DNA from: Escherichia coli
GTDB taxonomy: Bacteria > Pseudomonadota > Gammaproteobacteria > Enterobacterales > Enterobacteriaceae
Length of the DNA: 64,000 nt
Reading direction: 5' to 3' (one strand)
NCBI RefSeq assembly: GCF_044324875.1
Contig: NZ_CP172185.1
A program made the translations under genes and the position numbers. Positions 18,505 to 52,117 of this stretch are shown here, in pieces; the stretch's first letter is position 1; each line of letters starts with the position of its first letter. A model generated the notes under the pieces. It was not told the origin of the DNA. It saw nothing but the letters and a program-made list of their open reading frames with translations, and ran no database searches.

Positions 18505-18535
18505 AAGCCCCGGCCATGTGCCGGGGTTTCTCTTT
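18505..18535 (+). terminator. Hairpin plus T-tract terminator downstream of obgE
   Basis: ccccggccatgtgccgggg followed by tttctcttt. Confidence 0.6.
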
Positions 18536-28952: not shown

Positions 28953-30311
<1,359 letters not shown>

Positions 30312-30347
30312 TTAATTAACTGATGATGAGCCTGGATTTCCGCTCTC

Positions 30348-30384
30348 ACTGAATTTTTATGCAAAATAAATGAGTTTTCATTTA
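30348..30384 (-). promoter_or_regulatory. Probable tandem ARG boxes (ArgR operator) upstream of argG
   Basis: Minus strand reads ...AATGAAAACTCATTTATTTTGCATAAAAATTCAGT..., two adjacent TGAAT/ATTCA-like palindromes matching the ARG-box consensus, 50-90 nt upstream of the argG ATG. Confidence 0.5.
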
Positions 30385-30521
30385 ATCATCTTTTATCGGA
30401 GACAGGAAGAGTTTAGTGTGTTTTTTGTAAAATAATGCGCTTAAGGGAGAGCAGGAGAAGGCAAAAGTATTCAACAAATGAAAGTGAACCGGATATTCAT
30501 TCACGTGATTAGCAATAAACG

Positions 30522-30551
30522 TTGACAAAATGTGGCATGGATCACTATAAT
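30522..30551 (+). promoter_or_regulatory. Sigma-70 promoter of the metY-rimP-nusA-infB operon
   Basis: Consensus -35 TTGACA (30522-30527) and consensus -10 TATAAT (30546-30551) with 18-bp spacer, about 90 nt upstream of the tRNA. Confidence 0.7.
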
Positions 30552-30643
30552 GCCTGCAGATTTTACGTCCCGTCTCGGTACACCAAATCCCAGCAGTATT
30601 TGCATTTTTTACCCAAAACGAGTAGAATTTGCCACGTTTCAGG

Positions 30644-30720
<77 letters not shown>

Positions 30721-51295: not shown

Positions 51296-52045
<750 letters not shown>

Positions 52046-52117
52046 TTATTCCCAAGAATTGATAGTGAGCGTAATATTCACGCGCTCAATTATCATAACT
52101 TATTCCTGGGGAATGCT

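Follow-up and report, generated by a model that had tools for sequence, protein, structure and literature searches.

A probable tandem ArgR operator upstream of argG in Escherichia coli, recognised by weight matrix, shuffling and phylogenetic footprint

The argG promoter of Escherichia coli K-12 is an established target of ArgR, and the arginine regulon to which it belongs was described decades ago. The question raised by the locus considered here is whether a pair of imperfect palindromes ahead of argG in another E. coli genome can be recognised from the DNA itself as the corresponding operator, and which other readings of the same conserved block deserve consideration. The analysis covered a stretch of 64,000 nucleotides (hereafter, the window), within which argG, encoding argininosuccinate synthase (447 aa), occupies positions 28953-30296 of the minus strand according to the open reading frame listing and the argG annotation in identical E. 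coli records, the listing placing its ATG at 30296-30294. The divergent neighbour of argG is metY, the gene for initiator tRNA-Met (CAU), located at 30644-30720 on the plus strand by ARAGORN, an Rfam tRNA match and the K-12 annotation, and followed by rimP, nusA, and infB. The two genes are separated by an AT-rich spacer of 347 bp (37% GC). A 521-bp query around the candidate operator found matches in 5425 of 5426 E. coli genomes, with 100% identity to many complete ones.

The preliminary description of this DNA had placed two TGAAT/ATTCA-type motifs 50-90 nt upstream of the argG start codon, and such a pair is indeed present. The promoter-proximal ARG box (box A; ACTGAATTTTTATGCAAA, or TTTGCATAAAAATTCAGT on the argG strand) lies at 30348-30365, corresponding to -52 to -69 from the argG ATG, and the promoter-distal ARG box (box B; AATGAGTTTTCATTTAAT, or ATTAAATGAAAACTCATT on the argG strand) at 30369-30386, corresponding to -73 to -90. 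As read from the sequence, the boxes are separated by a 3-bp spacer, ATA (30366-30368), so that their centres are 21 bp apart, or about two helical turns. The interval originally proposed, 30348-30384, is thus correct at its start and too short at its end, where it leaves out the final 2 bp of box B. When the 64-kb window was scanned with the classical 18-bp ARG-box consensus WNTGAATWWWWATTCANW, box A differed from it at one position and box B at three. Palindromic symmetry extends to 4 of 5 positions in box A and is weak in box B (3 of 5; TGAGT / TAAAT). Within box A, the 14-bp core TGCATAAAAATTCA is identical to the RegulonDB-derived ArgR consensus that served as a decoy in PMC7826281.

Single matches to the consensus carry little information in this window, in which those with three or fewer mismatches number 6 against 6.8 expected. 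Since lone boxes occur at the chance level, it is the pair that provides a meaningful test. A symmetrised position weight matrix (PWM) was built from 18 boxes of nine MG1655 operators (carAB, argF, artJ, artP, argA, argR, argD, argECBH, and argI), with argG excluded. Because the best box pairs in the training upstream regions were located by consensus seeding, the matrix owes nothing to argG but does depend on the published consensus. In eight of the nine training operators the boxes are 3 bp apart, the spacing in argR being 2 bp. Scored with this leave-argG-out matrix, box A (20.2 bits) and box B (13.7 bits) ranked first and second, respectively, among 63,983 window positions, which is the outcome anticipated when PWM scoring was put forward as a check on the original call. 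At 3-bp spacing the tandem scored 33.9 bits, against 16.3 bits for the next-best tandem in the 64-kb window, and falls inside the range of 22-38 bits displayed by the training operators when each was left out by turn. When the intergenic region was shuffled 20,000 times with dinucleotides preserved, no shuffle attained 33.9 bits (maximum, 28.3), and the highest tandem in 200 shuffles of the whole window reached 21.4 bits. It should be noted that box B alone would be unremarkable in this AT-rich spacer, given that a single box of at least 13.7 bits appeared in 843 of the 20,000 intergenic shuffles.

K-12 MG1655, in which the tandem corresponds to 3318547-3318585, has the identical arrangement, base for base, across these 39 bp, the interval to the ATG, and the entire leader, and the K-12 gene order, yhbX-argG / metY-rimP-nusA-infB, is the same in the window. 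Across the argG-metY spacer, the two sequences differ at only three SNPs (30490, 30505, and 30537), none of them in box A or box B. We take the 39-bp tandem to be the ArgR site of the K-12 argG promoter treated by Charlier et al. 1992 and Krin et al. 2003, in whose studies ArgR reportedly binds the K-12 argG operator. Within the species, 4144 of 5423 E. coli genomes share an identical 75-bp sequence around the operator. Among five sampled genomes, K-12 being one of them, no SNP lies in either box except for a C>A change at 30379, which shifts box B closer to the consensus.

To follow the tandem beyond E. coli, we scanned for the ArgG protein in one genome per species, which returned 80 loci. 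An argG-upstream tandem scoring 27-37 bits was found in 17 Enterobacterales/Aeromonadales loci, comprising Citrobacter, Pluralibacter, Phytobacter, Superficieibacter, Kluyvera, Enterobacter, Shimwellia, Pectobacterium, Brenneria, Dickeya, and a metagenome-assembled genome (MAG) of Tolumonas. The arrangement is the same in all tandem-bearing genera, with a weaker distal box, a TAT or AAT spacer, and the proximal box TTTGCATAAAnATGCAnT, and the distance to the ATG ranges from -52 to -271 across the loci. In the alignment, the tandem block is nearly invariant and both flanks are divergent; box B is nearly invariant in 17 other taxa. By contrast, the tandem is absent from the Burkholderiales controls, and the argG loci of Burkholderiales, Acinetobacter, and most other distant groups scored below 15, mostly below 0.

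Several variant arrangements were observed in the same set of loci. ARG-like pairs are present at approximately -130 to -89 upstream of argG in Yersinia and Rahnella, with 4-bp spacing in the Yersiniaceae: the pairs in Rahnella score 28-30 bits at this spacing and are accompanied by overlapping boxes offset by 10-12 bp, and the pair in Yersinia is weaker (16.9 bits). Spirabiliibacterium, of the Pasteurellaceae, carries an ARG-like pair with 2-bp spacing at -117 to -80 upstream of argG. Beyond the Enterobacteriaceae and Pectobacteriaceae, the architecture of the operator has drifted. In addition, the conserved island upstream of argG continues past the distal box: a CTCTTCCkGTC motif, represented here by CTCTTCCTGTC (30401-30411, argG strand), is located about 20 bp further up than the sequence that abuts box B and is kept from Escherichia to Dickeya.

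Conservation of a short AT-rich block might also stem from features other than a repressor site. A transcribed RNA element was considered as its source and set aside, the only Rfam matches nearby being the metY tRNA and the rimP leader RF01770 (30809-30909; 102 bits), whose place between metY and rimP is the one expected in the metY-rimP-nusA-infB operon. Inverted repeats were not found in the argG-metY spacer. A more specific proposal is that the block is just the argG core promoter with UP-like sequence, its likeness to ARG boxes being coincidental, and the position of the promoter bears directly on it. The standard promoter scan, which demands 9 of 12 consensus positions, was empty on the argG strand, where the argG pair attains 8 of 12; a relaxed hexamer scan was therefore needed. 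The top sigma-70-like pair on the argG strand (best within 30297-30470) consists of a predicted -35 hexamer ATGAAA (30376-30381, minus strand) inside box B and a predicted -10 hexamer AAAAAT (30353-30358, minus strand) inside box A, at 17-bp spacing, each matching the consensus at 4 of 6 positions. The only other pair with 8 of 12 matches on the argG strand within 30297-30470 has a 15-bp spacer and is downstream of the boxes. Table 1 of PMC3946193, in which the metY/argG spacer is entered as bound by the RpoD holoenzyme, gives identical hexamers for argG, as consensus-matching predictions and not as mapped elements. From these hexamers, argG transcription would start near 30346 (close to 3318587 in K-12), leaving a leader of about 50 nt.

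With the predicted -35 and -10 elements inside the boxes, selection for the promoter would by itself keep part of the block conserved. Moreover, the conserved island upstream of argG reaches past box B by 8 bp, the abutting sequence AAAAGATG (30387-30394, argG strand) being located at about -41 to -48 from the inferred argG start, the position expected for a proximal UP subsite. However, the positions that are conserved are those of an ARG box (TGCAT, ATGCA, and the A/T core) and not those of a sigma-70 promoter, of which the predicted hexamers are poor examples. Nor would a bare promoter explain why a matrix derived from unrelated operators places the two boxes first and second in the 64-kb window, at the canonical 3-bp spacing and with a score that no intergenic shuffle equalled, and in vivo the argG promoter behaves like one repressed by ArgR (PMC3658269). 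We consider a coincidental likeness to ARG boxes to be highly improbable.

Much the same estimate applies to the proposal that another AT-preferring protein, such as IHF, Fis, Lrp, or H-NS, is the main binder at this site instead of ArgR. Such proteins bind many intergenic regions, and the low GC content of the spacer would suit them. Nevertheless, none of the tests points to any of the four, the metY-argG spacer is without an H-NS mark in Table 1 of PMC3946193, and the match is one to the ArgR matrix specifically, with the geometry of an ArgR tandem, and in many genera stands ahead of a gene for arginine biosynthesis. It is thus very hard to credit a different protein with the principal role.

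Assignment of the tandem to ArgR as an operator upstream of argG, as the preliminary description had it, is supported by the PWM rank, the conservation of the tandem, the identity with K-12, and the predicted overlap with the promoter; this last point, on which the original proposal partly hinged, was borne out in that the predicted -35 is inside box B and the predicted -10 inside box A. On sequence grounds, we estimate the probability that 30348-30386 constitutes the ArgR operator of the E. coli argG promoter at roughly 95%. The operator is already known; it is real, conserved, and ordinary. The PWM rank, the shuffle test, and the phylogenetic footprint are all concordant, showing that a true operator is recognisable from sequence alone, and the site can serve as a positive control for operator calling. 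It accounts for the arginine shut-off of argininosuccinate synthase in E. coli and carries little weight beyond correct annotation.

Placement of the predicted -35 in box B and the predicted -10 in box A fits repression through promoter occlusion. In the proposed mechanism, a single L-arginine-loaded ArgR hexamer would bind both boxes cooperatively on one face of the helix; with the distal box over the -35 and the proximal box over the -10, bound ArgR would keep RNA polymerase off, and synthesis of argininosuccinate synthase would be shut off when arginine is plentiful. When arginine drops, ArgR would leave and transcription of argG would begin some 50 nt ahead of its ATG. The hexamer stoichiometry, the dependence on arginine, and the exclusion of RNA polymerase are general background on ArgR, as set out for carAB P2, where one arginine-loaded hexamer binds and excludes RNA polymerase (PMC6245113). 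Like argG, carAB P2 has tandem ARG boxes 3 bp apart over the promoter (33.1 vs 33.9 bits), but carAB possesses a second, ArgR-independent promoter upstream, whereas none is evident for argG in the relaxed hexamer scan. The argF and argI operators, the strongest ARG-box pairs of E. coli, also resemble that of argG in having two 18-bp boxes, a 3-bp spacer, overlap with the promoter, and a similar tandem score (37 vs 33.9 bits). They differ in the quality of the boxes: the stronger, proximal box of argF/argI is perfect (0 mismatches), whereas argG combines a proximal box with 1 mismatch and a weak distal box with 3. Consistently, the in vivo ArgR dissociation constants Kr, expressed relative to argA (argA = 1), are 2.85 for argG, 0.6 for argI, and 1.43 for argF, the value for the argG promoter having been fitted from GFP reporter data; the weaker argG boxes fit the intermediate ArgR affinity of argG (PMC3658269). 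A study of Klebsiella ArgR (PMC12219000) contains nothing on the argG operator.

Control of argG might extend across the spacer to its divergent neighbour. The metY upstream promoter, a perfect TTGACA-18-TATAAT at 30522-30551 on the plus strand, was detected by the promoter scan, and PMC3946193 gives metY these same hexamers. A second promoter-like site, TTTGCA-18-TAGAAT (30599-30628), is located just 5' of the metY tRNA. Inside the spacer of the metY upstream promoter, we found a CRP-like site, TGTGGCATGGATCACT (30531-30546), with 2 mismatches to TGTGA-N6-TCACA; the SNP at 30537 relative to K-12 falls in its N6 segment. Matches of this quality occur at chance frequency in the window overall, and a scan of the window for TGTGA-N6-TCACA with three or fewer mismatches, which found 183 against 227 expected, is uninformative at that scale. 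In passages of PMC3017606 and PMC3105977, the metY/argG pair is cited as being under the control of ArgR and cAMP-CRP, and papers citing Krin 2003 mention a single CRP site common to metY and argG. A CRP-like site within the metY promoter spacer would let cAMP-CRP block that promoter, in agreement with the cited repression of metY.

A distal third ARG box, CGTGAATGAATATCCGGT, is present at 30488-30505 (-192 to -209 from the argG ATG) and is degraded in this strain, in which it scores 8.3 bits. The K-12 version, TGTGAATGAATATCCAGT, scores 16.2 bits, the decrease being due to the two SNPs at 30490 and 30505. The allele in all four non-K-12 E. coli genomes sampled scores 12.7 bits, a T occupies position 30490 in all five sampled genomes (K-12 and the four others), and the exact 86-bp sequence of the window around the third box is shared by only 350 of 5404 E. 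coli genomes. These features raise the possibility that the tandem, the third box, and the CRP site also act on metY, through looping or another form of coupled control, so that the term argG operator would be incomplete. The K-12 third box is about 120 bp upstream of the tandem and adjoins the metY upstream promoter, and in passages of PMC3105977 and PMC3017606 Krin 2003 is cited for ArgR and cAMP-CRP lowering metY, with one CRP site serving both promoters. On the other hand, the third box shows no conservation at a fixed offset in other genera and is weak in this strain, and over 135 bp separate the tandem from the -35 hexamer of metY. We regard joint control of this kind as possible but doubtful; in any case, it adds to the explanation of the tandem as the argG operator and does not replace it. 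There is a slim chance that the minority allele of the third box could loosen the reported ArgR/CRP coupling of argG with metY-nusA-infB transcription in that lineage.

Further ARG-like sequences in the window were inspected individually. Matches at 18534, 44735, 52037, and 53247 were rejected as additional ArgR sites: they are lone boxes at chance frequency, and their tandem scores are at most 16.3 bits, below the shuffle maximum of 21.4. The second-best ARG tandem of the window, at 52016-52054 (16.3 bits), is probably due to chance because its score is inside the range of shuffled sequences; a single box in this tandem, GCTGAATAATTATTCCCA (12.3 bits), is situated where yraR ends, 64 nt ahead of yraQ. 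Closer to argG, a weak extra ARG-like box, TTTGTAAAATAATGCGCT (30424-30441; 10.0 bits, window rank 11), is positioned 55 bp centre-to-centre from box B. Its conservation is not consistent; in Kluyvera, a strong box (17.6 bits) is present at a comparable offset (-46).
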